The translations under genes and the position numbers were made by a program. Below, one piece after another: positions 36,935-56,626 of a stretch of DNA of 58,330 bases; the first letter of the stretch is position 1; every line of letters begins with the position of its first letter. Under the pieces are notes generated by a model, which saw only the letters and a list, made by a program, of their open reading frames with translations, was not told where the DNA came from and ran no database searches. The stretch lies in sequence record SRR31156797_2267; one strand, given 5' to 3'.

Positions 36935-37801
36935 TTATAGTCCCAAAAGGTATTTGCCGTAATCATTCTTGCCCATTTTCTTACCTTCTTCTTTCATTTT
37001 CTCTTTGCTGATAAATCCTTTTCTCCACGCGATCTCTTCCAGACATGATATTTTCAAACCTTGTCTCTTCTCAATCGCCTGAATGTACATGTTGGCGTCT
37101 GCCATCGCTTCATGGGTTCCGGTATCCAACCAGGCATACCCTCTTCCCATAAATTCCATCTTAAGTTCCCCGGATTCAAGGTAAGCTTGGTTAACAGAGG
37201 TTATTTCCAGTTCACCTCTTTCAGAGGGCTTTACATTTTTAGCGATCTCAACTACAGAATTCGGGTAGATATATAAACCCACCACAGCATAATTGCTTTT
37301 AGGATCTTTCGGTTTTTCAACTACTGAAAGCACATTGCCGTTTTCATCAGTTTCTGCAACTCCATATCTTTCCGGATCTTTTACATAATATCCAAAGATC
37401 GTTGCAAGTTGTTCTTCCTCAGTTTTCTTTACTGCCTGCTTAAGCATTTGCGGCAAGCCGCTTCCATAAAATATATTATCACCTAAAATGAGAGTTACTT
37501 CATCATCACCGATAAAATCCTCACCAAGAATAAATGCCTGAGCCAATCCATCAGGTGATGGTTGAACAATATAAGATAATGATATACCCCATTGACTACC
37601 GTCTCCCAATAGCCTTTTAAAGGCAGCTTGATCTTCGGGTGTTGTAATGATCAAGATATCTTTGATTCCGGCAAGCATCAGCGTGGAAAGAGGATAATAG
37701 ATCATTGGCTTGTCATAAACCGGCAGAAGCTGCTTGCTAACAGCGATCGTGATCGGATATAAACGTGTACCTGATCCTCCAGCTAGAATAATACCCTTCA
37801 T
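36935..37801 (-). CDS. rfbA: Glucose-1-phosphate thymidylyltransferase
   Basis: [54 protein letters not shown]. Confidence 0.96.
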
Positions 37802-37817
37802 TTTATTCTCCTATAAC

Positions 37818-38132
37818 TTAACTTTCTATGTCTTCTTTTATTTTTTTCAATTCTTTTTGCAGCTGATAATATTCGGTTTTTTTGCGTTTTATAAATCTTT
37901 CGGTAAGCATGATCTTTTCTTTAATACCTTCTTGGGTCAACAAATACTTGTAGTTCTTTTTACACTGAGAACTTGCAAAATTTTCAACCTTTATCAAGCC
38001 CTTTTCAATTAGAGCATTCAATACGTAGTTGATCTTTCCTACACTATAGCCCATTTCATCCGCTAAAACTCGCTGATTTTCTATCTCTTCCGCTTTTCTG
38101 AGTATATTAAATTCTAATTCTTCGTTATTCAT
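37818..38132 (-). CDS. MarR-family EPS-associated transcriptional regulator
   Basis: NQRVLA..GYSVGKINYVLNALIEKG, YKYLLT..GI.EK, F..RK..EY..L. Confidence 0.88.
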   Translation of the reverse strand: MNNEELEFNILRKAEEIENQRVLADEMGYSVGKINYVLNALIEKGLIKVENFASSQCKKNYKYLLTQEGIKEKIMLTERFIKRKKTEYYQLQKELKKIKEDIES

Positions 38133-38163
38133 TTTGTTTTGATATTAAATTTTCAATTGTATG

Positions 38164-38211
38164 TGGCTTCGCCCCAAACAGTCACATAGACATATTAGCA
38201 TATATTGAGCA
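38164..38211 (-). promoter_or_regulatory. ops/JUMPStart-like leader element, copy 2
   Basis: TGCTCAATATA-N14-TGTGACTGTTTGGGGCGAAGCCA on the minus strand, ending 31 nt before the ATG; matches copy 1. Confidence 0.65.
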
Positions 38212-38307
38212 ATGCTTTATCATGTTCATTTTTTGAATTTAAGATAATATAAGAGATATTTTCTACTTTTGTACAGTTTTTTAACATAATGTAAAACATA
38301 AACCTTC

Positions 38308-39360
38308 TTAGGTATTATACATCTTAAGGTAATACTCCATATAGGAGTTGTCGATCACATTATTCATCCATTCTTCATTTTCAAGATACCAATCGATCGT
38401 TTTTGAGAACCCATCTTCAAATTCATACGTAGGTTCCCAACCTAATTCATCTGATATCTTTGATGCATCAATTGCATAACGCAGATCATGCCCGGCACGA
38501 TCTTTGACATAGGTGATCAATTTTTCTGATTCCCCAATTTCTCTATCAAGTTTTTCATCGATCAAGCGACAAAGAGCACGAACAAGGTCAATATTCTTCC
38601 ATTCATTGTTACCACCGATATTATAAGTCTCTCCAATCTTCCCTTTGTGAAATATTAAATCAATCGCAATTGCATGATCTTCAACATGCAACCAATCACG
38701 AATATTCAATCCTTCACCATATACCGGCAATGGTTTTTTATTTTTTATATTATTGATCATCAATGGAATAAGTTTTTCGGGAAATTGATTGGGACCATAA
38801 TTATTCGAGCAATTGCTAATTACCACCGGTAATTTATATGTATTGTGATAAGCTCTGACGAAATGATCAGATGAGGCCTTTGCAGCCGAATATGGAGATT
38901 TTGGGTCATATGCAGTATCTTCTGTGAATAATCCTTCATCTCCCAATGCACCGTATACTTCATCAGTGGAAATATGATAGAACAACTTACCTTCTGTATT
39001 ATCTTTCCAGGCGTGCTTTGCAGCGTTTAAAAGTGTGACTGTGCCGAATACGTTCGTTTCAATAAACGTCATGGGATCTTCTATTGAACGATCGACATGG
39101 GATTCTGCAGCAAGATGAATAACACCATTTATGCAATACTTACTAAAGAGTTCCTGCACAAATTCAGCATCACAAATATCACCTTTAACAAACTTATAAT
39201 TTGGAGATGATTCAATATCCTTCAAATTTTCAAGATTGCCCGCATATGTTAATTTGTCAAGATTTATGATCAGGTATTCAGGATATTTTTTCACAAATAG
39301 TCTTATAACATGAGATCCAATAAATCCTGCACCCCCCGTAATTAAAATAGTTTCTTTCAT
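38308..39360 (-). CDS. rfbB: dTDP-glucose 4,6-dehydratase
   Basis: GGAGFIG, DKLTYAGN, HLAAESHVDRS, STDEVYG, YSAAK, NNYGP.QFPEKLIP, DRAGHD.RY; ATG at 39360 with RBS GGAG. Confidence 0.95.
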   Translation of the reverse strand: MKETILITGGAGFIGSHVIRLFVKKYPEYLIINLDKLTYAGNLENLKDIESSPNYKFVKGDICDAEFVQELFSKYCINGVIHLAAESHVDRSIEDPMTFIETNVFGTVTLLNAAKHAWKDNTEGKLFYHISTDEVYGALGDEGLFTEDTAYDPKSPYSAAKASSDHFVRAYHNTYKLPVVISNCSNNYGPNQFPEKLIPLMINNIKNKKPLPVYGEGLNIRDWLHVEDHAIAIDLIFHKGKIGETYNIGGNNEWKNIDLVRALCRLIDEKLDREIGESEKLITYVKDRAGHDLRYAIDASKISDELGWEPTYEFEDGFSKTIDWYLENEEWMNNVIDNSYMEYYLKMYNT

Positions 39361-39385
39361 TTTAACATACTCCAATTCATTATTA

Positions 39386-40384
39386 CTAAATCAAACTTCT
39401 CTCAGTTAGGAATTTCTTTAATATTACATTCATGATCTTATATTTAGATCCAAAATACTTCAGTTTGTCATTTAAACTATTCCGGCCACAGTGTTTTTTG
39501 ATCTCATTCAAAACTGTCACAGAAGTTTTATCATCCATCACATAAAATGAATAGAATAGTTTTTTTCTCAAAAAACTTATCATAATTCTTTTTTGAATAT
39601 TTTTATCAACTCCCTTGATCTCACAGAATTTCTCTTTAATCTGAAAGACATTCTCAATGTAGCGGTATTTTTTTTCAATATTATCAGGTCTACTTGCAGT
39701 ATTATCCTGTAAACGATAAACCGCTGTAATATCTTGGATAAAATCAATCTTGTCATGAGATGCAATTTCCAGCCATAATGGATAATCCATAATCTTATGT
39801 GTGACTATTTCCTTATTCAATATTTCTATTGCACTAGATATTGCATCATTTTTTACCATAACTGTTGGAGTAGTAATCACATTCCCTATCAGTAAAGTGA
39901 AAAAATAATCATTATCTTTTATTTCGCTTACTTTTCCTCTGCTTAATAATTTACTTTTTTTCTCATGATAAATAAGATTCGAAGTATGAACGAGAGCTAT
40001 GTCTTTATTATTATCTAAATGATCAACTTGTTTTTTTAACTTATGAGGATCGCTCCAATAATCATCTCCATCTAATAAGGCTATATATTCACCCTTACAG
40101 TTTTCAACAATATTTTCAAAATTATAAAGCCTTCCTCTTTCCTGTCTTTTTACCCAATATTCATCACCCTTTTTTCTTGCTAATATCGTGATGGTAATAT
40201 ATTTGGTGTTTTGATATGACTTAATTATCTCTAACGTGCTATCTGTCGAAAAATCATCCCCCACAACAACTTCAACCGGAAAGTCAATTTCCTGCATCAT
40301 GATACTATCCATAGCCTGACGGATATATGCCTCATGATTATACGTCATTAAACGAACACTTACTTTAGGTAAGTTCATAGTCAA
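39386..40384 (-). CDS. Glycosyltransferase family 2
   Basis: TYNHEAYI, DDFSTD, YIALLDGDDYW..KL..Q, DYPLWL. Confidence 0.9.
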   Translation of the reverse strand: MTMNLPKVSVRLMTYNHEAYIRQAMDSIMMQEIDFPVEVVVGDDFSTDSTLEIIKSYQNTKYITITILARKKGDEYWVKRQERGRLYNFENIVENCKGEYIALLDGDDYWSDPHKLKKQVDHLDNNKDIALVHTSNLIYHEKKSKLLSRGKVSEIKDNDYFFTLLIGNVITTPTVMVKNDAISSAIEILNKEIVTHKIMDYPLWLEIASHDKIDFIQDITAVYRLQDNTASRPDNIEKKYRYIENVFQIKEKFCEIKGVDKNIQKRIMISFLRKKLFYSFYVMDDKTSVTVLNEIKKHCGRNSLNDKLKYFGSKYKIMNVILKKFLTERSLI

Positions 40385-41246
40385 ACTTCACAAGCATTTT
40401 TTCAGCAATTTCATTAAATACATTTATGTCTGTTTTGGTGAGAAGATCTTTGTATTTACCGACATTATCCGGCATTACATTTTTTAAAGTATTCTTTTTC
40501 CAGTCCATAGTAGAACTTGGTTCATCATTATACTTGTAATACTCAAGCATTTTTGAATCAAAGGGGATATTTAAAAATTCTACAATAATTTTTATGGTGT
40601 TTTCAGGTGCAGATATAAGGTCTTCATATCTTAAGCATAAGTAATTGTTTGTATGCTTATTTTCAAGAAACTCACTTATCATCGTATTATTTCCCGACCA
40701 TTCTTCCGCAATCTCATTTATTGATACCGGGAGATCAGGCTGGTATTTTGACTGACTAAGTAATTTTTTCATAGCTAAATACGAGCAAGCCACATCGCGC
40801 CCGTCACGGATCAGGAAAATATATTTAGCATCCGGCCATATTTTTTCAATTGTATTTAAGTGATGAATATAATAATTATTTTTATCGACAATAAGCTTTG
40901 CATTTTTACTTTGACTTTTGGCTCTCAAAAGATATGGCAAAATACATAATTCACCGTAATTATCCGGCTTATATTCATTGATCATATTTCTTAGATCAAC
41001 AGCATCTATATTCCATGTTTCAATTTTCTTACTTGATAAAATATCTCGAACAACTTCCATGACAGTTTGCTCATTTATAAGATCTACATTACTCCAATTC
41101 TTATATTTTTCATACCACCATTGCATAAATCCGCTTTCAGGAGCTGCCATTATTTCAGAATGCGCGTTGAGCATGATCCTCAACAAGGATGTACCGGATC
41201 TTGGATTACCTAAAATAAATATTTTAGCAGGATTTGTATAATTCAA
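40365..41246 (-). CDS. PAPS-dependent sulfotransferase
   Basis: 5'-PSB FILGNPRSGTSLL, DKN, 3'-PB IRDGRDVACS, RYEDL; TTG start. Confidence 0.85.
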   Translation of the reverse strand: MNYTNPAKIFILGNPRSGTSLLRIMLNAHSEIMAAPESGFMQWWYEKYKNWSNVDLINEQTVMEVVRDILSSKKIETWNIDAVDLRNMINEYKPDNYGELCILPYLLRAKSQSKNAKLIVDKNNYYIHHLNTIEKIWPDAKYIFLIRDGRDVACSYLAMKKLLSQSKYQPDLPVSINEIAEEWSGNNTMISEFLENKHTNNYLCLRYEDLISAPENTIKIIVEFLNIPFDSKMLEYYKYNDEPSSTMDWKKNTLKNVMPDNVGKYKDLLTKTDINVFNEIAEKMLVKFDYELT

Positions 41247-41259
41247 TCATTACTCGATT

Positions 41260-42711
41260 TTATTTTGAGCGCTTTAAAAGCATATCTTTCAATTTTATGC
41301 TTTCCATTAAAACAGGCTTGTTTATCAAATATTGCAACAATATATAACTTCCGGGTACTAGCAATATTCCGCTTATGAGCAGTATCCATAAATTTGATAT
41401 CGTCAATACTAAGACATATCCGATAGCAAGGGAAACAGCAATTGAAAAATAGAACTTCCAAATATCTCTTAATTGTTGCATGAAACCATAATTGATATAC
41501 TTCTTAATAATTGTTGTATTGATAATAACAGAGATAGCCGTAATGATGATCTCACCAAGGATGATATATGTTACACCAAAATTTGATGTTACAAAAATAT
41601 TGATTATTCGAAGACTGTTCTTGATCAAACTGACATTAAAATTAAGACGACTCTTCCCTATTGCAAGTAAAGCCCTTGTATTCACTACATTAATTGGATA
41701 TAACATACCTACAACACACAATAGCCTGAGATATGGAATCATTGGTTCCCATTTATCTGTCAACAATATTAAAACGAAAGGTTTGGCGATAACAATAAAT
41801 GTCGCCAGCAAAGGAATAATAAAGATCAAAGTTTGTTGCAGAAATTTCTTTATTTGATTTTGTAATCTGGGAATATTTGATTTTGATTTGGCAAAAATCG
41901 GAAAAGTAACCGTACCAATAGCTCCAACTATCTGATTTGTTGACAATCTTTGAAATTTTTTCGCTTGTGAATAGTATCCTAATTGGGCAAGCGGGAATAG
42001 TTTACCGATGACAAGAACATAAATATTCTCAAACAATTGGTTCAATAGTCCTGAAAAAAGTATCCATGAACCAAATTTAAACATATCTCTAAATGATGAG
42101 CGGGAAAACGTAAGGGCCGGATGCCATTTTGAAGTGATCCACAAACCGAGGGTTATCAATAACCTTTCACTAAGATTTTGGATAACCAGACTCCAGACTC
42201 CCATGCCCTGCCAAGCGGCAATAACACCTAATGTACCGGAAACAATAACCGATATTAGAGTTACAAGGGATTTTCTTTTAAAATTAACCGCCCTTGTGAT
42301 CTGCGCTATTTGTATGACACTAAAAGCGTTAATTATCATGACAAATCCCATTACTCTAAACAGGGTCTGCAGGATCTGTTCTTCATAAAAGTTGGCCAAA
42401 AGCGGCGCAGTAAACCAAACAATAACATAAATGAGCGCGCTAATGATCAAGTTCGAATAAAATACGGTATTTGCATCAGCTTCACTTACTTCCTTTTTCT
42501 GAACATATGCTTGCCCGAAGCCACTATCGATAAATACTTGAGCAACAATAAAGAATACCGTTATAATACCCATGATCCCGAATTCTTCGGGAGATAGCAA
42601 ACGAGCAAGAACGATCCCAAGGATCAATCTTATCCCTTGAATGCCGAATCTCTCTATTAGATTCCAGGCAACTCCTCTTACGGCTTTATCTTTGGCCAGT
42701 GTATCTGACAC
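41260..42711 (-). CDS. wzx: Wzx flippase (WzxC-like)
   Basis: LARLLSPEEFG, DSGF, GVWSLV, LGYY, LLTDKW; GTG start. Confidence 0.88.
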   Translation of the reverse strand: MSDTLAKDKAVRGVAWNLIERFGIQGIRLILGIVLARLLSPEEFGIMGIITVFFIVAQVFIDSGFGQAYVQKKEVSEADANTVFYSNLIISALIYVIVWFTAPLLANFYEEQILQTLFRVMGFVMIINAFSVIQIAQITRAVNFKRKSLVTLISVIVSGTLGVIAAWQGMGVWSLVIQNLSERLLITLGLWITSKWHPALTFSRSSFRDMFKFGSWILFSGLLNQLFENIYVLVIGKLFPLAQLGYYSQAKKFQRLSTNQIVGAIGTVTFPIFAKSKSNIPRLQNQIKKFLQQTLIFIIPLLATFIVIAKPFVLILLTDKWEPMIPYLRLLCVVGMLYPINVVNTRALLAIGKSRLNFNVSLIKNSLRIINIFVTSNFGVTYIILGEIIITAISVIINTTIIKKYINYGFMQQLRDIWKFYFSIAVSLAIGYVLVLTISNLWILLISGILLVPGSYILLQYLINKPVLMESIKLKDMLLKRSK

Positions 42712-42715
42712 GACT

Positions 42716-43645
42716 TTAATGCTCCAACGTTAGTAGATTAAGTTGATCGGAAAGTATGTTCGCACCCTCTTGATTTAAATGATCAGCATCTCCAAAACAG
42801 CTATTATTGAATCCTTTATCATTTATAAAGTTTTTGTAGACCGTGTTCTGATATACCTGAGATAATGAATCACAGGTATCCCCTATTAGTTTCCATTTTT
42901 CTGAATTTAGTTCATCAACATAATATGATGTACCCGGTGGTGTAAATAGAATCACCTTGCATTTCGAATTCTGACACATTTCAATAATTTCAATCAAAGT
43001 ATTAAGCTGTGACGATAGATCCAGGGAGTTATCTTCATGTCTTTTCGCAGCTGTTATTGCCGTTTCTTTCAGGTCTTTTTCTAAATCAACGGGCCACATA
43101 GCCCACCCGTTTTCATCACAGATCCTATTATCATTACCCTTCAAATAATATCCGGCCATTTTTTTTGAGATATTCTTGCCATTTGTAGTGGTGAGAGCAA
43201 TATGATGTTTTAAGGATCTCTTTTCAGATTTATCAATCATTTCCAGATCAGTATAGATCGAGTAATGATATTTTCTCCAATATTCAACGCTATTCTCCAG
43301 ATCCCTTCTTAAAGTAAAGTACGATACAGGAAGAACAACATACTCCAAATCAGGTAAATATTTAATATAACTTTTTAAAACAGCTTTATCATATTCAAGG
43401 GTTTGACTCACCATGGCAAAATTAAAACATGCTTTGTCAAACTTCTTCGGATTTACTCCCCTGTACGCATGAGATGAACCAAGAACCAGGATCTCAATTT
43501 TATCACCATTTTCTTTCACATAAGATGATTTGTAAGAATAATCATTGGGTATGTTTCTGTATAATGCTTCAGTAACTACTAAAACAACAATAACCGGGAT
43601 AATGAAAATTAGGACCTTAAGGACCAGTTTATTAATATTATTCAT
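42716..43645 (-). CDS. SGNH/DltD-like periplasmic acyltransferase partner
   Basis: N-terminal TM anchor, LGSSH nucleophile motif, C-terminal DADHLN..GA (DxxH); directly downstream of the MBOAT gene. Confidence 0.68.
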   Translation of the reverse strand: MNNINKLVLKVLIFIIPVIVVLVVTEALYRNIPNDYSYKSSYVKENGDKIEILVLGSSHAYRGVNPKKFDKACFNFAMVSQTLEYDKAVLKSYIKYLPDLEYVVLPVSYFTLRRDLENSVEYWRKYHYSIYTDLEMIDKSEKRSLKHHIALTTTNGKNISKKMAGYYLKGNDNRICDENGWAMWPVDLEKDLKETAITAAKRHEDNSLDLSSQLNTLIEIIEMCQNSKCKVILFTPPGTSYYVDELNSEKWKLIGDTCDSLSQVYQNTVYKNFINDKGFNNSCFGDADHLNQEGANILSDQLNLLTLEH

Positions 43646-43647
43646 CT

Positions 43648-45084
43648 CTAAAATTGGAAATAAATGAACTCCTGTTTTTCACCAATATGGATCAATATTG
43701 TTAATACGATCAAATAATAGCTCGAGTATCTAAACCATTTGGGCAACTTATCACTATTAAGCGCCAAAGCATGCTCTTTATCTCGCTGAAGCCATTCGAT
43801 AATAATGAATAAACCAAGTATCAACAGTAACGAAATGGGTAAAACTTCCGGAATGCTAAATAAACTTAGACTGAACATTCTCCCCAAATATGAAAAAGCC
43901 ATCGCCATATTCTCAGATCTAAAGAACACCCATGCAATGACGGTCAGTAAGAAAGTCAATAGTATTTGAAAAAACTCTTTTGCATTCGGAATAATTCTAC
44001 CTTTTGAAACTATCTCGAGGTTACTTCGATTCTTTTTAGAAAGCATCAAAGGAATAAAATATAAAGCATTGATTACCCCCCAGGCGACAAAAGTCCATCT
44101 TGCCCCATGCCAGAATCCACTAACAATAAAAATGATCAGTGTATTTCGAATTCTCTTCATTGTACTGACACGACTTCCGCCAAGTGGGATATAAACATAA
44201 TCTCTAAACCACGATGAAAGTGAGATATGCCAACGTCGCCAAAATTCTGCGATATCCCTTGAAAAATACGGGAATGCAAAATTCTTCATTAAGTTAAAAC
44301 CAAACAATCTTGCAGTTCCGATAGCAATATCCGAATACCCCGAGAAATCGCCATATATCTGAAATGCAAAAAATATTCCACCAAGTAATAATGTTGCCCC
44401 ACTCATATCCTGATAATTATTAAAGATCTGATTCACATAAACAGCGCAGGAATCCGCAATCACGATCTTTTTGAACAAACCCCATAATATCTGCCTTAAT
44501 CCATCAACAGCCTTTTCGTTGTCGAATTTTCTTTTATTCAAAAACTGGGGTAATAAATTTGTTGCTCTTTCAATAGGTCCTGCAACCAACTGCGGGAAAA
44601 AACTAACATATGCAAAAAATGAAACAATATCTTTGGTAGGTTTTAATTTCTTTCTGTAAACATCAATGGTATAACTAAGCGTTTGAAATGTATAGAAACT
44701 AATACCAACGGGAAGTATGATGTTCAAAGACTTAACATTGGGAGTATACCCGAGAAATGTAAAAGCATTAACAAAATTATCTGCAAAGAAATTATAATAT
44801 TTGAAAAACATTAAAAGGCCGATATTAACACAAACACTGACCAGTAATAGAACGATCCTGATATTCTTTTTTTCATGACGTTCCAATAATAGCCCGACAC
44901 TGTAATCGACAATAGAACTGAAAAAGATCAGCGTAAGAAATCGATAATCCCACCATCCATAGAATACATAACTGGCTATCAAGAGCACAATATTCTGATA
45001 CTTAATATTATTCTTGAAAATGTACCAGTAAAGAATAAATACTATTGGTAGGAATATTGCAAATTCGAGCGAATGGAAAAGCAT
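43648..45084 (-). CDS. MBOAT O-acyltransferase (AlgI/DltB family)
   Basis: LPVGISFYTFQ, FFPQLVAGPIER, YGDFSGYSD, FWRRWHISL, SGFWHGA, FIYFQF. Confidence 0.93.
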   Translation of the reverse strand: MLFHSLEFAIFLPIVFILYWYIFKNNIKYQNIVLLIASYVFYGWWDYRFLTLIFFSSIVDYSVGLLLERHEKKNIRIVLLLVSVCVNIGLLMFFKYYNFFADNFVNAFTFLGYTPNVKSLNIILPVGISFYTFQTLSYTIDVYRKKLKPTKDIVSFFAYVSFFPQLVAGPIERATNLLPQFLNKRKFDNEKAVDGLRQILWGLFKKIVIADSCAVYVNQIFNNYQDMSGATLLLGGIFFAFQIYGDFSGYSDIAIGTARLFGFNLMKNFAFPYFSRDIAEFWRRWHISLSSWFRDYVYIPLGGSRVSTMKRIRNTLIIFIVSGFWHGARWTFVAWGVINALYFIPLMLSKKNRSNLEIVSKGRIIPNAKEFFQILLTFLLTVIAWVFFRSENMAMAFSYLGRMFSLSLFSIPEVLPISLLLILGLFIIIEWLQRDKEHALALNSDKLPKWFRYSSYYLIVLTILIHIGEKQEFIYFQF

Positions 45085-45087
45085 TGC

Positions 45088-45789
45088 TTACTTAGATTTC
45101 CCCAAATGAATATTATAATTATCAGCTACGTTCTTTTTCAGAAATCCACCAAGTTTCTGCCATTTTCTATCATCTGTAAGTTCACAATAGAACAATTGTC
45201 CAGGTGCATGTTTTTTAAAATATTCAATCACTTCTCTGTTGTAATTATCATATATCCTGGTATAATGATCTTTCATTCCGGACATATCCATTAAATTGTC
45301 AACTTCCTTTTCATTCGGATTAAAATCAGAATCTTTATCCAATTTTTCATAATATTCATCAAGGCGATCATAAACCTTGCAATGCCTGTAAGTATTGCCC
45401 AATACTTTTCCACCTGAATGCTTTAGCATTGATTTATACCAATCCTCACTATTTCTGTAGAAAAGTATAAATTTAGCTTTGGGGAAACGATGATAAATAT
45501 ATTTATAGAAGTCCGGCATCCACCAAGGATTATCCTCAAAGGCTTGATGAGATTTAAAAGTAATTGATCTAAATATTTTTTCGTAATCACCATTTAGCCA
45601 ATAATATGACCAATCTACCGAATGATTACCATAACCAGCAACCCGATATCCGTGATCTTTCAAGAATTTTCCACAAGAAGTCGTGCCATTTCTTTGCACT
45701 GAAAGACAAAATACTTTTTTTCTGTGCCTTATAAACAAAGAGTATATAAAATTGACCAAAGGTTTTAATACTTTTTTATTTCTACTCAT
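45088..45789 (-). CDS. Sulfotransferase-family protein
   Basis: KVFCLSVQRNGTTS (5'-PSB), FEDNPW, KFILFYRNSEDWYKS (3'-PB), WQKLGGFL. Confidence 0.75.
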   Translation of the reverse strand: MSRNKKVLKPLVNFIYSLFIRHRKKVFCLSVQRNGTTSCGKFLKDHGYRVAGYGNHSVDWSYYWLNGDYEKIFRSITFKSHQAFEDNPWWMPDFYKYIYHRFPKAKFILFYRNSEDWYKSMLKHSGGKVLGNTYRHCKVYDRLDEYYEKLDKDSDFNPNEKEVDNLMDMSGMKDHYTRIYDNYNREVIEYFKKHAPGQLFYCELTDDRKWQKLGGFLKKNVADNYNIHLGKSK

Positions 45790-45793
45790 GCTA

Positions 45794-46951
45794 TTAACAT
45801 TCCTTATTGCAGATTTTTATTAACTCAACAATTTTTATAACATCATTTTTCCTAAGATCGGGATAGATTGGTAAACACAGTATTTCCTCAGCCATTCTAT
45901 TTGCAACAGGTAAATTATTGTTTGAAGCTGATTCTAAGCAATTATACATGGGGAAAGAAGAGATCAATGGATAGAAATATCTCCTTGAACGCACATTGTA
46001 TTTTTTCAACTCCTCATAAAGCTCATCTCTGGATATCCCAAAATCTTCCTCATTGACCAAAACAGGAAAATATGAATAATTATGCTGAATTTCGGGTTCC
46101 CTGACAATACATTCAATTCCAGCAATATCCTTTAAAGCATTTTCATAACAGAGGGCCAATTCTTTTCTTTTGTCAATATTGCTTTCAACTAATTTCAATT
46201 GCTCAAGTCCCATTGCTGCCTGGACTTCGTTCATTTTGGCATTTATACCAATATCAACCACAGACGTTTCCCCGTGAAAACCAAAATTCTTTAAATCATC
46301 TATCTTTTGTTTCATTTCTTGAGTATGGCATACAATAGCACCGCCTTCGAAGGTATTGAACACTTTCGTTGCATGAAAACTAAGCACAGAAAGATCACCC
46401 CAATTAAGAATACTTTGACCCTTGGAACTCACTTTAAACGCATGGGCAGCATCATATATCACTTTTAGGTCATGTTTTTCGGCTATCTCCATGATCTTAT
46501 CATGATCACATGGATTTCCATAAACGTGAACCGGCATTATAGCTGTTGTTTTATCTGTTATTAATTCCTCAATCTTCTTTGGATCAATATTCATAGTATC
46601 AGGACAAATATCTGCGAATACGGGCGTGCATGAGCACCAGCTGATCGCATGGGAAGTCGCCACAAAGGAAAACGGTGTTGTTATTACCTCACCTTCAATA
46701 TCCAGTGCTTTTAATGCAAGGATCAAAGCCAGGGTACCATTTGAGCATAGAGCAATATTATCCACACCAAGAAATTCATTTAATTCTTTTTCAAGACTTT
46801 GGTGAAAGACCCCATTGTTCGTCAACCACTTATTAGCCCAAATCTTTTCGAGATACGGTACAAAATCCTTTAGGTCCGGAAGTGAAGGTTTTGTTACCGT
46901 AATGGGATCATCAAATTTCAAATGCTTATTGACTTTGTTTTTGATCTTCAT
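45794..46951 (-). CDS. vioA: dTDP-4-amino-4,6-dideoxyglucose transaminase (VioA-like, DegT family)
   Basis: VTKPSLP, WLTNNG, NGTLAL, YDAAHAF, SFHATKVFNTFEGG, GINAKMNE, RRYFYP; ATG at 46951. Confidence 0.8.
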   Translation of the reverse strand: MKIKNKVNKHLKFDDPITVTKPSLPDLKDFVPYLEKIWANKWLTNNGVFHQSLEKELNEFLGVDNIALCSNGTLALILALKALDIEGEVITTPFSFVATSHAISWCSCTPVFADICPDTMNIDPKKIEELITDKTTAIMPVHVYGNPCDHDKIMEIAEKHDLKVIYDAAHAFKVSSKGQSILNWGDLSVLSFHATKVFNTFEGGAIVCHTQEMKQKIDDLKNFGFHGETSVVDIGINAKMNEVQAAMGLEQLKLVESNIDKRKELALCYENALKDIAGIECIVREPEIQHNYSYFPVLVNEEDFGISRDELYEELKKYNVRSRRYFYPLISSFPMYNCLESASNNNLPVANRMAEEILCLPIYPDLRKNDVIKIVELIKICNKEC

Positions 46952-46967
46952 AATTTTTATCGCGAAA

Positions 46968-47016
46968 TGCCTACGGCGCAATCAGTCACACAAACCGATT
47001 AATCCTATATTGAACA
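46968..47016 (-). promoter_or_regulatory. ops/JUMPStart-like leader element, copy 1
   Basis: TGTTCAATATA-N15-TGTGACTGATTGCGCCGTAGGCA on the minus strand, directly downstream of the upxY-like gene and ending 16 nt before the ATG. Confidence 0.65.
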
Positions 47017-47070
47017 GACCTTTTACCGTTATTTCGCGATCCTTATCATTTCGTTAATACAAATCTTATT

Positions 47071-47099
47071 AATATAGGTAATACTATTAAAAAAATGAA
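47071..47099 (-). promoter_or_regulatory. Possible sigma70-type promoter for the glycan operon
   Basis: TTCATT-N17-TATATT on the minus strand just upstream of the leader; weak evidence given the AT-richness. Confidence 0.3.
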
Positions 47100-47192
47100 G
47101 CTAATAAAGCAATTTTTAAGAAGCCTAAACCTTATTAAAAGCTTTATTTAACGAGGATATTTAATGTTTATATTTTTTTACGAAGATCGGAA

Positions 47193-47711
47193 TCAACATG
47201 ATATTGAATTAATGCTTTCCAAGGTGTCCTTTTCTATCTCTATGGAAACAACCTTGCCCAGCTGCTCAATTAACACATAAAGTCTTAGATGATTTTTAAT
47301 TTTCTTTACTCGTCCCCTTACCCCTGCAAAAATACCACGATTAATTTTAACCTCCTCACCTTCTTCAAATTGATAACCATTGTCAATTTGAAGTGATTCG
47401 GTATTATTCATCATAATTGCGATCGAATCAATCTCTTCATCTCTGATAACTGCCGGTTTTTTCCCGAATTCCACAAAGGCACTGACACCCTTTTCATTCA
47501 AAACATAATACTTTTTGTCAAGGTTGATCTTAATAAACAGGTACCCGGGAAACATAGGTACATTCAATGTTTTAACCCGATCGGACCATTGGCTTTTCTT
47601 CTTGAGCTCCGGTAAGAATACTTGATGTTTATCTGATAATTTCTCAAAAACGGCTTTTTCATGCCTTGGACGCACCTTAAGGGCATACCATTTTTCATCA
47701 TTTTTTATCAT
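47193..47711 (-). CDS. UpxY/RfaH-type NusG-paralog transcription antiterminator
   Basis: NGN: WYALKVRPRHEK, QWSDRVK...PMFPGYLF; KOW: GEEVKINRGIFAGVRG. Confidence 0.9.
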   Translation of the reverse strand: MIKNDEKWYALKVRPRHEKAVFEKLSDKHQVFLPELKKKSQWSDRVKTLNVPMFPGYLFIKINLDKKYYVLNEKGVSAFVEFGKKPAVIRDEEIDSIAIMMNNTESLQIDNGYQFEEGEEVKINRGIFAGVRGRVKKIKNHLRLYVLIEQLGKVVSIEIEKDTLESINSISC

Positions 47712-47713
47712 GA

Positions 47714-48502
47714 TCAATGATTGGGATGTTCAATACTTGCGGTTAGTATGCTTTTATGCATTGTCACAACAAATGCACCAGCTTTATTTGAATAAATAGG
47801 TTCGGGGTTTCCGTTTTCCAGGCAAGCATCATTCATTCGTTTAAAACCGGTTCCCCAGTTATCAACAATACCGAGACTTTGGAAAATCATGGCTAAGTTG
47901 CTGTTTTTAAGAATTGTTCTATCCTCATACAGTATCTTATCCAGATCAAGTTCTTCGGGAAGTCCACCCGGGCTCCAAATTTCCAGCCAATCTTCAAAAA
48001 CCCTTACCTGAATATTCCCGGTATCATTATAATCTCTATGCAATACGGCATTTATAATAGCTTCTTTTAATGCATCTAAGGGATAATCCCACTTCATTTC
48101 TTCTTTTCCGCTACGATGGTGAATAATGCCTTGATCGATATGTTTTTTAATAAAATCTATGATCTCATCTACTGCAATGATCATATTTGTATCAATATTT
48201 TTTCTATCGATGAATTTTGTTACAGTATTTCCATCAAATCTGGCAATTTTTATCACTGCATTTGAATAAAGCTCATTTTTCTTTGCAAAACACAGATAAC
48301 CTGCCTTTGTTACCTTTCCTTCACGAATTTGGCGTATTTGTTGCAAAAAATCATTTACACTTTCAAAGTTTCCTTCTGCTGTGAATTTTTTGATCAGTTC
48401 TTCGTCAAATTCAATCTCGTTGATAGGAATATCAACAAAGGAAGCAGCCATATCAGTTAAAGAATTGTATGATTTTGTTTCTTTTTTCTCTGCTTTACTC
48501 AT
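47714..48502 (-). CDS. GHKL-like ATP-binding protein (RecG-C/HATPase_c_4 type) lacking the usual AlbA_2 and HTH domains
   Basis: YPLDALKEAIINAVLHRDY, LEIWSPGGL, N..LA.IF, WGTGF. Confidence 0.75.
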   Translation of the reverse strand: MSKAEKKETKSYNSLTDMAASFVDIPINEIEFDEELIKKFTAEGNFESVNDFLQQIRQIREGKVTKAGYLCFAKKNELYSNAVIKIARFDGNTVTKFIDRKNIDTNMIIAVDEIIDFIKKHIDQGIIHHRSGKEEMKWDYPLDALKEAIINAVLHRDYNDTGNIQVRVFEDWLEIWSPGGLPEELDLDKILYEDRTILKNSNLAMIFQSLGIVDNWGTGFKRMNDACLENGNPEPIYSNKAGAFVVTMHKSILTASIEHPNH

Positions 48503-48687
48503 CGTATACCACCGATTGTTTTTGTTATATTTTATAAGTAAAAATATTATTTATTTTGCCATAAAACAATAAAATTGTTAAAAGCCTATTATCAATGCGT
48601 TTTGATTTTTATTAATTATCCTGGGAACAATTAGGTGTTGAATTCATATATGGATTACAACAACAAATTACTTCCCTCCTTATCCTT

Positions 48688-48722
48688 CGCCATAACATCC
48701 ACCCCAAAAGGGTGTTATGGCG
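48688..48722. repeat. GC-rich intergenic palindrome (REP-like or terminator-like hairpin)
   Basis: CGCCATAACATCC-N9-GGGTGTTATGGCG, 13-bp stem with one mismatch/GU, 17 nt past the stop at 48740; no clear U-tract. Confidence 0.55.
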
Positions 48723-48739
48723 CTTGAGTCAAGTTATTA

Positions 48740-49300
48740 TCAGATAATATCTAGTTTGCCATCAATATCTTGATATCTTTCCCCGGTTCTAGGACAGACA
48801 AGATCATCACCTAGTATCTCACCCTCTCTACTAACCCAGCCCTTCTGCTTTGCGGGCACACCCACCATTAAGGCATATGCCGGCACATCTTTCGTTACAA
48901 CCGCACCAGCAGCAATTAAGCAATACTCACCAAGAGTAATACCGCAAATAACCGTTGCATTGGCTCCGATAGAAGCTCCCTTTTTGATACGGGTAGGTTT
49001 ATATTCAGTTTTTCTTTCAACAAAGGCACGGGGATTCATAACGTTTGTAAAAACGCAACTGGGACCACAAAATACATCATCTTCAATGATCACAGAATCA
49101 TAGATCGATACGTTATTTTGAACTTTCACACCATTGCCGACAATAGCTTTGGAACCAATATTGACATTTTGTCCGATTGAACATCTTTCTCCAACTTTGG
49201 CTCCAGGCATGATATGAGAAAAATGCCAAACCTTTGTTCCTTTCCCGATCAAAGCACCTTCATCAACTCTAGCTGTTTCGTGTACAAAATATTCAGACAT
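48740..49300 (-). CDS. wbpD: Hexapeptide N-acetyltransferase, WbpD/WlbB-like
   Basis: [47 protein letters not shown]. Confidence 0.85.
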
Positions 49301-54732: not shown

Positions 54733-55479
54733 TTAATCAAGAGACACTTTAACTTTGCCCCCTATTGCAAATGACCTATCCTTAAAAATACTGATATGCT
54801 TTAAGTTGACCACTTCTATCGCTTTATCTACAACTTCCTCAATATCATCTACTTTTACGACTTGATTGGCAAAAGCAGTTGCATATTGATCTGCCAGGAC
54901 CGCATCACAACAAGCTACAGAAACAAGATCGGCATTTCCCAAACTTTTTGAATGCCCGAATTTTCCTGAGGATGCACAAAGTCCCATAGGGCACATATCC
55001 GGTTCAATATCCAATTTGATCTTGTTCGAAAGCGGATGATCACCTGCAAAAAGCGATACTTTGATCTTTTTTACAACATCAATGAACAGATCACCGCCAT
55101 TTTCAACAATGATCTCATTAAAACCAAATTCAGTTTTACAGGCTATTCCAATCTCTTCTGCATAAAGACCCGCTATTCCTGCCATGGGTCCAACTTCAGT
55201 TATCACCGAGCCCAAGGCAAGCCTTTTAACAAGTGACGGAGCATCATCCGGGACATCATATGGACCAAAAGTATTCTTGTAAACGGGGTCGTTCTTAAAA
55301 TATTCTTCAAATACATCCCATAATGAACGACATTTTTGATCTATAAAAGATAAGATATTTTCTTTTGGTACATTGTTTTTTTCATCATATGCCAGCCAAA
55401 TATCGGTGTCCCGATATTTGTAGACCAATGAATTGAAACGCCCGCCCATATCTTTGCGATAGAACCTGGGTTCAAACAT
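54733..55479 (-). CDS. UPF0280 / COG2122 ApbE-like protein
   Basis: VGPMAGIAG, IVENGGDLF, GLCASSG..GHS.SLG.AD, ADQYATAFAN. Confidence 0.85.
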   Translation of the reverse strand: MFEPRFYRKDMGGRFNSLVYKYRDTDIWLAYDEKNNVPKENILSFIDQKCRSLWDVFEEYFKNDPVYKNTFGPYDVPDDAPSLVKRLALGSVITEVGPMAGIAGLYAEEIGIACKTEFGFNEIIVENGGDLFIDVVKKIKVSLFAGDHPLSNKIKLDIEPDMCPMGLCASSGKFGHSKSLGNADLVSVACCDAVLADQYATAFANQVVKVDDIEEVVDKAIEVVNLKHISIFKDRSFAIGGKVKVSLD

Positions 55480-55483
55480 ATTA

Positions 55484-56626
55484 TTATTCCGTTTTTAGGG
55501 TCTTTAAAGATGTATTTTCAGGAAATAATTGAACAGCTTCTGCAATGGTAAATTCACCATTTATTATTTGTTCTTTTAAAATATCAGCAATTTTGCGAGC
55601 CTTTTTTAATGAAGACATGGGAACAGTTGGAACTTTTTTACCGTCAATTTCGATTGAACCGCTTCTTAATTGTTCATAGTTGACAGTCTTTAACACCGGC
55701 ATTCCGGGAGAACCATAATCCTTGACATATGTATCGATCTCACGGTTCTTGATCGATACATATTTTGCTATTTCTTCATTCAATACCGGAATGGGAATTC
55801 CAATGCCGATGAACATACTTACACCATACTTTTCATAGTAGGCTGCCCGGATAAATTCTGTGTCCATTTCTTTCATGTTCCCTGTCACGGTCAAGGTCGC
55901 AGAATTGGGGATCGGGACTCCATTTTCGTTTCGTTCAGAATCAGTCCTATACTGAGTTCCATTCCAGGTTACAAAGCCTTGTGCACCTGCCAGGAATATC
56001 CTGGTTCCAATACCAATTGTTTTCAAATAAGGGTCATTAAGTAATGGGCTTAATTCACCTGATGTTGAGTAAGTTACATTAGTACACCTAGGTTTAAGAA
56101 TACCCATATATGTAAATTTTTTCTCATCGGTCGTATTCGTTGCAGCTGGGTAATTCTGGTAAGCGTTCCGAGGATTATGAAGGATCATTTCATTGATCGA
56201 ATCACGGTTGATTTTTGTTTTCAATTCCTTTCTCGGATAACAGTCAGTTCCTTTAGCTTTTGCTTCCAGTTCCACGTCTTCTCCGGCGATCAAAGATTGA
56301 ATAACGTGCGCTCCACCATAAGTTGGATCATCAGGCGATTCTTGCGTTACTCCGATATAGGTATCTGCAGCCGCAATGCCACCATAAGCCTCTACTCCAT
56401 TCAGGGTCAATTTTTCCATTCGCATAGGAGGTGATGGATGTCCAAAATTTATAAATGCTCCCGACGAACACATCGGACCGAAAGTTGCAGTTGTTACCAC
56501 ATCTACTTTTTCGGCTATTTCCGCCGGGGTCAGTTCCTCGGCCAATTTTGAGACTTCCTCGGCCGTCAGGACTACTGCTTCTCCCCTTGCGATCTTTTCA
56601 TTGATTTCCTGATAGGTTTTCGCCAT
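55484..56626 (-). CDS. DUF39 homocysteine-biosynthesis protein (aspartate-semialdehyde sulfurtransferase)
   Basis: KTYQEINEKI..GEAVVLTAEE, VDVVTTATFGPMCSSGA, GTDCYP, NPRNAYQNY, SPLLNDP, GIGTRIFL. Confidence 0.88.
   Translation of the reverse strand: MAKTYQEINEKIARGEAVVLTAEEVSKLAEELTPAEIAEKVDVVTTATFGPMCSSGAFINFGHPSPPMRMEKLTLNGVEAYGGIAAADTYIGVTQESPDDPTYGGAHVIQSLIAGEDVELEAKAKGTDCYPRKELKTKINRDSINEMILHNPRNAYQNYPAATNTTDEKKFTYMGILKPRCTNVTYSTSGELSPLLNDPYLKTIGIGTRIFLAGAQGFVTWNGTQYRTDSERNENGVPIPNSATLTVTGNMKEMDTEFIRAAYYEKYGVSMFIGIGIPIPVLNEEIAKYVSIKNREIDTYVKDYGSPGMPVLKTVNYEQLRSGSIEIDGKKVPTVPMSSLKKARKIADILKEQIINGEFTIAEAVQLFPENTSLKTLKTE

Follow-up and report, generated by a model that had tools for sequence, protein, structure and literature searches.

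The 58,330-nt stretch of DNA SRR31156797_2267, referred to here as the window, contains two copies of a short leader element which, judged by their conservation in related loci, are real conserved elements and at which the UpxY-family NusG paralog of 47193-47717 is probably recruited in the manner of ops. Both copies are read on the minus strand. On the strand of the upxY gene the element consists of the 8-mer TGTGACTG, 5 nt of spacer and a stem of 3-4 bp with a G-N-A loop, the sequence of the stem changing from site to site while its pairing is kept. The two sites, the boxes upstream of them and the presumed factor are as follows.

46990..46968, minus strand: site 1, TGTGACTGATTGCGCCGTAGGCA, matched by covariance model R1 at 46960-46993 (E 0.0005); 8-mer TGTGACTG at 46990..46983, spacer ATTGC, mini-hairpin GCC-GTA-GGC at 46977..46969, then A and the conserved T (46967)
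38186..38164, minus strand: site 2, TGTGACTGTTTGGGGCGAAGCCA, matched by R1 at 38156-38189 (E 0.00016); 8-mer TGTGACTG at 38186..38179, spacer TTTGG, mini-hairpin GGC-GAA-GCC at 38173..38165, then A and C
47016..47006, minus strand: upstream box TGTTCAATATA, 15 nt before the core of site 1; a related TTCAWTATA stands at equal offset in the related loci L002 and L009
38211..38201, minus strand: upstream box TGCTCAATATA, 14 nt before the core of site 2
47193..47717, minus strand: UpxY-family NusG paralog of 174 aa; NF033644 at 123 bits (cut-off 100), Pfam NusG and KOW

Against the RfaH model the same protein reaches 84 bits, below the cut-off of 144.5, and the relatives returned by a PDB sequence search are NusG and RfaH. 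The initial annotation of this DNA had described two 23-nt copies identical at 18 of 23 positions without gaps, a covarying mini-hairpin, and TG(T/C)TCAATATA boxes 15 and 14 nt further upstream, all of which were recovered exactly on the minus strand. At site 1 the middle stem pair is C-G and at site 2 G-C, a swap that accounts for two of the five differences between the copies. Exact matches to TGYTCAATATA (the TTCAATATA box) are confined in the window to the two boxes, and with one mismatch allowed there are five matches where 6.2 are expected. Within the window alone, the likeness of the two copies is not significant. The eight intergenic stretches of at least 40 nt (1,263 nt) hold one pair at 18/23 or better against a shuffle mean of 0.67, and at least one such pair arose in 13 of 30 shuffles. 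A pattern derived from both sites matched the sites themselves and nothing in 100 shuffles, but this test was post hoc. As the resemblance inside the window is no better than chance, the reality of the element rests on its relatives.

Eighty loci were obtained from metagenomes by a scan with the aligned close UpxY group; the UpxY proteins of 12 loci are at 48-55% identity (the close loci) and those of the rest at 30-38% (the distant loci). The nearest UpxY proteins are 53-58% identical to that of the window. The best one is named Candidatus Marinimicrobia, and so are homologs, at 67-86% identity, of the 262-aa HATPase_c_4 protein encoded next to UpxY. When the exact 8-mer TGTGACTG was searched for in related loci with the hairpin ignored, nine matches were obtained, six of which were followed at fixed offset by a stem of 3-4 bp and a G-N-A loop, with varying stem letters. 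By our own estimate, such a stem and loop would occur by chance at about 1 in 1000 sites. Allowing the 8-mer up to two mismatches brings the number of distinct sites in the close lineage to eleven, both window sites counted. Their stems are GCC/GGC, GGC/GCC or AGC/GCT, often extended by a fourth pair, and their loops GTA, GAA or GGA.

The ten strong close-lineage matches and both window sites are all intergenic and on the gene strand, and the close-lineage sites lie approx. 20-550 nt upstream of a co-oriented glycan gene or of a gene for MarR_EPS, a MarR family EPS-associated regulator. Class 1 sites are found 178-383 nt past the UpxY stop codon and before the first glycan gene (203 nt in the window; also in L008, L009, L010 and L029). 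Class 2 sites precede the MarR_EPS gene (window, L002, L007, L009 and L029), and five of the six MarR_EPS genes of the close loci have one. The original description of the element as bipartite is borne out only in part. What is truly conserved is the 8-mer; the TG(T/C)TCAATATA box, in its TTCAWTATA form, is present at 4 of the 11 distinct close-lineage sites.

The covariance model R1, built from 17 sites with three-letter loops, gave 40 matches at E ≤ 10 over the window and 84 loci (497,806 nt), and 35 of the 37 matches in the loci had the same strand as UpxY. E values below 0.001 were confined in the window to the two sites; a third match, at E 1.2, is inside a gene. In the 17 seeds, whose selection required three Watson-Crick pairs and so in part presupposed the inner pairing, the three inner pairs are Watson-Crick throughout (GC:15/AU:2, GC:13/CG:4 and CG:17), 91% of the stem cells are paired as compared to 25-52% with slid partners, and covariation amounts to 0.449 versus 0.160 in shuffles, a score that none of 500 shuffles reached. 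Very similar values were obtained for the 38 distinct R1 matches in an alignment fitted to the model (89.9% of cells paired versus 25-46% with slid partners; covariation 0.502). Because of the preselection of the seeds and the fitting of the larger alignment, the six of nine exact 8-mer matches are the unbiased figure. On the 11 close sites, RNAalifold predicts this hairpin as the only structure. A T stands 2 nt past the stem in 15 of the 17 seeds. Nearest-neighbour DNA folding of 15-mers yielded −1.2 to −2.6 kcal/mol (z −0.4 to −2.7), hairpins of this kind being too small for such values to inform.

The distant loci point to a wider family. A looser definition of the element was used, a composite of TG[GT][GA][AG]BBN, 7-9 nt, a C-G-closed G..A loop of 3-4 letters and one further Watson-Crick pair. 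In 421,372 nt this composite was matched 61 times on the strand of UpxY as compared to 9 times on the opposite one, and the hairpin accompanies 3.5% of the box matches on the former and 0.76% on the latter. Of the 67 distant loci that could be evaluated, 37 have a composite match in the 250 nt before UpxY, two of the loci (L024 and L025) being near-identical copies. On the UpxY strand, the 250-nt upstream regions contain 38 matches in 15,454 nt, compared with 12 in 307,383 nt elsewhere. The box of the distant loci is mostly TGGGACTC or TGGGACCC and the hairpin often GGC-GGTA-GCC or GC-GAA-GC. The octamer GCGGTAGC, which is the E. coli ops hairpin as quoted in PMC11685472, was counted in all 80 metagenome loci: 11 copies fall in the 250 nt before UpxY, 7 are located elsewhere on the same strand and 6 on the opposite one. 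In L035, L052, L064 and L076, four of the distant loci, the element is 63-144 nt downstream of UpxY, as in the lineage of the window. A scan of genome contigs with UpxY gave only one distant relative (28% identity), in a metagenome-assembled genome of Opitutae; one match in this genome is the housekeeping nusG beside ribosomal protein genes, and the other paralog has no clear element.

In B. fragilis, RNA polymerase pauses at one site per capsule leader, where the cognate UpxY is recruited via its N-terminal domain (Saba et al. 2024, PMC11685472). According to the text of that paper, on which our comparison with Bacteroides rests, UpxY reads the non-template DNA hairpin 5′-YGCGNAGCR together with upstream duplex DNA in a site of approx. 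40 bp, leaves upstream footprints at −21 to −24 and −31 to −34, and the pause is prolonged by a nascent-RNA hairpin and NusA. The window resembles this opsX system in its UpxY-family NusG paralog, in its capsule or glycan locus, in the location of the site on the coding strand of the leader and in a mini-hairpin that combines a GC stem with a G-N-A loop, GCGAAGC being part of site 2. What precedes the opsX hairpin also matters, as duplex DNA to about −34. The window differs in having two sites per locus, in lacking an adjacent UpxZ gene among the neighbours scanned, and in a second stem pair that may be C-G. It also differs in the 8-mer TGTGACTG at fixed 5-nt spacing, which is not found in the two B. 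fragilis sites printed in the Methods of the same paper (CTGCGAAGCATA and CCGCGTAGCGCA).

The E. coli RfaH-ops system likewise combines a trans-acting NusG paralog, the gene of which is outside the operon it acts on, with a short non-template DNA hairpin in the leaders of long surface-glycan operons, and its GCGGTAGC recurs verbatim in elements upstream of distant UpxY relatives. The loops in the window have three letters rather than four, there is an additional upstream 8-mer, and the factor scores as UpxY and not as RfaH. According to Wang et al. 2020 (PMC7593976), the UpxY gene is part of the operons that UpxY targets, and E. coli RfaH was at that time the only paralog with a known mode of recruitment. 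The initial annotation had further called the element JUMPStart-like. JUMPStart is comparable as a polysaccharide-operon leader element that contains ops. However, no Rfam family, JUMPstart included, was matched by the window at the gathering score, by 37700-48800 with the limit relaxed to E ≤ 10, or by 20 related loci with a limit of E ≤ 1, and the label is therefore unjustified.

Other cis elements that load or build processive antitermination complexes are the LoaP leader hairpin, phage nut sites and the EAR of Bacillus eps operons. All of them function at the level of RNA, and they exceed the element in size or differ from it in sequence; their similarity to the window was compared through Rfam scans. 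EAR sits inside an exopolysaccharide operon, as site 2 may.

The proposal that the two sites load the local UpxY paralog is supported by their linkage to and co-orientation with UpxY genes, by the covarying hairpin and by a hairpin type like that of B. fragilis and E. coli. By analogy with RfaH/ops and B. fragilis UpxY/opsX, RNA polymerase transcribing the leader would reach the element on the non-template (coding) strand, and in the open bubble the C-G-closed G-N-A mini-hairpin would form in non-template DNA. The polymerase would pause at the conserved T (or C), approx. 2 nt beyond the stem, and the N-terminal domain of UpxY would bind the hairpin together with the 8-mer TGTGACTG. On the register proposed here, the 8-mer would be duplex DNA approx. 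16-24 bp behind the pause (−16 to −24), from which we infer that it falls in the zone of the upstream contacts of B. fragilis UpxY. As the two sites differ in the stem and in the middle base of the loop, the factor would read the shape of the hairpin and the invariant letters, namely TG..A in the box and, in the loop region, C, G, A and G. The modified polymerase would then read through the long glycan gene array. Site 1 would load polymerases starting at a promoter-like block after upxY. Site 2 would most likely load those from a second promoter-like block before MarR_EPS, and it could also catch read-through polymerases. These two blocks are the following.

47060..47099, minus strand: leader 1, A/T-rich blocks TTCATTT ... 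CCTATATTAATAAGATTTG, approx. 70-110 nt upstream of site 1, from an alignment with L008, L010 and L002; candidate promoter
38224..38252, minus strand: leader 2, blocks TTATATTA and ATTCAAAAAATGAAC, invariant columns in an alignment with L002, L009 and L029; candidate internal promoter and/or operator

The block CCTATATTAATAAGATTTG of leader 1 may resemble the −7 box of Bacteroidota promoters. In the four orthologous leaders of MarR_EPS, TTATATTA and ATTCAA(A/T)AA(A/T)TGAAC are invariant 40-70 nt upstream of the element. Within the invariant block, a palindrome TTCA-N6-TGAA (38224-38238, minus strand) stands upstream of every MarR_EPS gene aligned and is a candidate operator for autoregulation by MarR_EPS. 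A scan of the window for sigma-70 promoters was at background (56 found versus 53.6 expected); one weak match, GTGACT-18-TACAAT (9/12), overlaps site 2, and site 1 has no matching second hexamer. A terminator scan found 7 candidates against 5.1 expected, none of them in either leader. The conserved promoter-like blocks and the absence of a terminator-like site from the leaders favour two promoter-plus-site units. Of the two roles originally offered for site 2, reloading of the factor or service to an internal promoter, the latter is preferred, given the block shared by the four MarR_EPS leaders.

It had also been stated that both sites lie in leaders and that neither downstream ATG has an obvious Shine-Dalgarno sequence. 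This is correct, GGAG, GAGG and AGGA being absent at −18..−5 of both ATGs. As a hint of ribosome recruitment it carries no weight, because 40 of the 55 genes of the window are without a Shine-Dalgarno word and only 15 have one.

In the predicted RNA fold of the site 1 leader (z −1.94), the 3′ half of the box pairs with upstream sequence, and a 9-bp candidate pause hairpin is present. The outer stem of this fold is a perfect 10-nt inverted repeat, ATCGCGAAAT / ATTTCGCGAT (47031-47040 and 46959-46968, minus strand), which brackets all of site 1 including its upstream box; it was not seen in the relatives inspected by eye. The RNA of the site 2 leader has no structure beyond that of shuffles (z 0.16), and RNAalifold on the close sites gave no pause hairpin upstream of the element.

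These folds bear on whether the element acts as RNA, with the transcribed 8-mer and hairpin bound by the KOW domain of UpxY or by another factor and tethered to the polymerase, a mode proposed for LoaP leader hairpins and phage nut sites; the output would still be antitermination, but recognition would differ. The observed covariation suits an RNA hairpin as well as a DNA hairpin, and G-U cells occur at the second pair (GU:10) and at the fourth pair (GU:4 and UG:2) of the model-fitted alignment. The order of box, spacer and hairpin is formally like that of nut sites (boxA and boxB), and the pairing of the box in the leader of site 1 would fit as well. We consider an RNA element unlikely all the same, as the leader of site 2 lacks such structure, distant homologous elements carry the hairpin octamer of E. 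coli ops, and the N-terminal domain of both RfaH and class-1 UpxY of B. fragilis reads the hairpin as non-template DNA, while what lies upstream is read as duplex DNA and not as RNA (PMC11685472). Somewhat less likely still is a site in double-stranded DNA, which might belong to a promoter recognised by an alternative sigma factor or be the operator of a regulator such as MarR_EPS or the 262-aa HATPase_c_4 protein. A duplex site needs no compensatory changes in a stem, and the element is no palindrome. MarR_EPS genes do follow site 2 and its orthologues, five of six in the close loci, and the 262-aa protein is a conserved neighbour of UpxY; the element is found, however, also before DegT, RfbB and flippase genes without a following MarR gene, and directly before UpxY in distant loci. 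The sigma-70-like match overlapping site 2 is offset by a scan at background and by the missing second hexamer at site 1.

There is very little probability that the resemblance is due to chance, or that the sites are remnants of repeated or mobile DNA without a role in expression. The pair in the window is indeed no better than chance, and hairpins of the form GCTCC-loop-GGAGC, similar to repetitive extragenic palindromes (REP), adjoin UpxY together with IS200-like Y1 transposases in L004-L006. Yet architecture, strand and position of the element are fixed across dozens of independent loci, its stems are far shorter than the REP-like ones, and no transposase is found near the two sites in the window.

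Several observations weigh against recruitment of UpxY at these sites and were set against the preferred interpretation. One close locus (L002/L003) retains the promoter-like block past UpxY, whereas its element at this place has decayed; RfbB directly follows UpxY in this locus, and the MarR_EPS site is the sole remaining one. The window site lies downstream of upxY and not upstream of it as in every characterised Bacteroides case, and the element is found within 250 nt upstream of UpxY in none of the 12 close loci; covariance model R1 likewise has no match upstream of UpxY in the window. The order promoter - opsX - upxY - upxZ - glycan genes of Bacteroides capsular polysaccharide loci, with upxY as the first gene, is thus not seen in the close loci, whereas 37 of 67 distant loci have the site upstream of upxY. 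A Pfam scan of the two neighbours of UpxY in the window (HATPase_c_4 and DegT) gave no match to the UpxZ family. Neither site fits the B. fragilis hairpin YGCGNAGCR letter for letter, since site 2 has G and C for Y and R and the core of site 1 is CCGTAGG. An upstream RNA pause hairpin, which B. fragilis requires, was not above shuffles at 49 sites (5.8 versus 5.2 box nt paired, mean z −0.35). To this come the preselected pairs of the seeds and the fact that every locus scanned is a UpxY locus, so that absence of the element away from UpxY was judged within such loci.

The genes around the two sites all point in one direction, the minus strand carrying every gene from 51403 down to 116. The genes bordering the sites and the UpxY gene are listed below.

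47714..48502, minus strand: 262-aa HATPase_c_4 protein, the stop of which overlaps the UpxY start by 4 nt
45794..46951, minus strand: DegT/DnrJ/EryC1 aminotransferase, first gene past site 1, ATG at 46951
38308-39375, minus strand: RfbB-like dehydratase, the gene ahead of site 2
37818..38132, minus strand: MarR_EPS regulator (MarR family EPS-associated), first gene past site 2; TIGR04176 at 110.5 bits (cut-off 88)

Site 1 is located in a gap of 241 nt between the UpxY-family gene and the DegT gene and site 2 in a gap of 175 nt between the RfbB-like gene and the MarR_EPS gene; the next ATG follows 17 nt past site 1 and 32 nt past site 2. Downstream of the DegT gene are genes for two sulfotransferases, an MBOAT protein, a 309-aa protein without Pfam match, a flippase-like Polysacc_synt_3 protein, a GT2 protein and RfbB. 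MarR_EPS is followed by RfbA, an epimerase and approx. 36 kb of co-oriented genes to position 116. On the other side of UpxY, a strong hairpin, GCCATAACACCC-TTTT-GGGGTGGATGTTATGGC (48690-48725, minus strand), stands directly after a hexapeptide acetyltransferase gene without a run of T and may mark the end of an upstream three-gene sugar-modification unit. Beside the island, at 54733-56626 (minus strand), two further homologs are encoded in a bacterial context, one of a PRK04334-type hypothetical protein and the other of the 'methanogenesis marker 16' metalloprotein; neither match reaches the cut-off.

The 12 close loci are syntenic with the window, with identities of approx. 90% for a symporter, 72-87% for the 262-aa protein, 54-78% for RfbB and 64-85% for MarR_EPS. 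Their UpxY proteins are only 48-55% identical to that of the window, which, next to the greater likeness of the neighbours, places UpxY in the variable part of the island. The 262-aa protein, which has HATPase_c_4 as its only domain, always precedes UpxY (window, L005, L006, L008-L010, L012 and L029); longer homologs of approx. 420-460 aa add AlbA_2 and helix-turn-helix domains. The 262-aa protein may act as a regulatory partner of UpxY or simply mark the conserved edge of the variable island. Two overlapping contigs, L004 and L007, contain two UpxY genes 4.5 kb apart in one island, approx. 53-55% identical to that of the window, with an ops-like site after each, forming a tandem of UpxY-headed glycan modules. 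Short tandem repeats of the types (CCCTATA)n, (ATCAACT)n-like and CTCAGCG-like occur directly upstream of UpxY (approx. 100 nt in L004 and L005; likewise in L002, L003, L008 and L010) and could be variable-length, possibly phase-variable, tracts. REP-like hairpins (GCTCC-3 nt-GGAGC) are repeated at 750-1100 of L004, 3095-3500 of L005 and 5300-10500 of L006, where they surround three 157-aa IS200-like Y1 transposase paralogs just downstream of UpxY (Pfam Y1_Tnp, one tested). This system, similar to REP and REP-associated tyrosine transposases (RAYT), occupies the place of the first ops-like leader of other relatives.

Judged by titles, the UpxY papers surveyed concern Bacteroidales or NusG in general, and a literature search that included PMC11685472 without its supplements found no description of UpxY sites outside Bacteroides. 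What appears to be new in the Marinimicrobia-like lineage is a site downstream of upxY, its duplication within the island and the widely conserved upstream 8-mer. A broader interpretation, put forward tentatively and on balance doubtful, is that the box (TGKGACY) and the ops hairpin form an old bipartite signal of the whole UpxY-like branch that crosses phyla and links E. coli ops with Bacteroides opsX. In the Marinimicrobia-like lineage this signal might have become uncoupled from upxY, with a fast-evolving, locus-linked UpxY allele acting in trans on at least two promoter-ops units of one glycan island, one of them driving MarR_EPS, and reading the shape and not the sequence of stem and loop.

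Among specialised NusG paralogs, detailed knowledge of recruitment sites is limited to E. coli RfaH and, from 2024 on, B. fragilis UpxY. If the two sites act as proposed, the hairpin logic would extend to uncultured Marinimicrobia and to many soil and freshwater lineages. The 8-mer, the fixed spacer, the C-G-closed G-N-A or G-N-N-A hairpin and the T would provide a searchable signature for targets of UpxY-like factors in metagenomes. As the 8-mer would lie approximately where B. fragilis UpxY, according to the text of PMC11685472, touches upstream duplex DNA, the role of upstream DNA would become testable in a second, distant system. Finally, the gene of the factor and its site would be separable, and the site could be duplicated within one glycan island.

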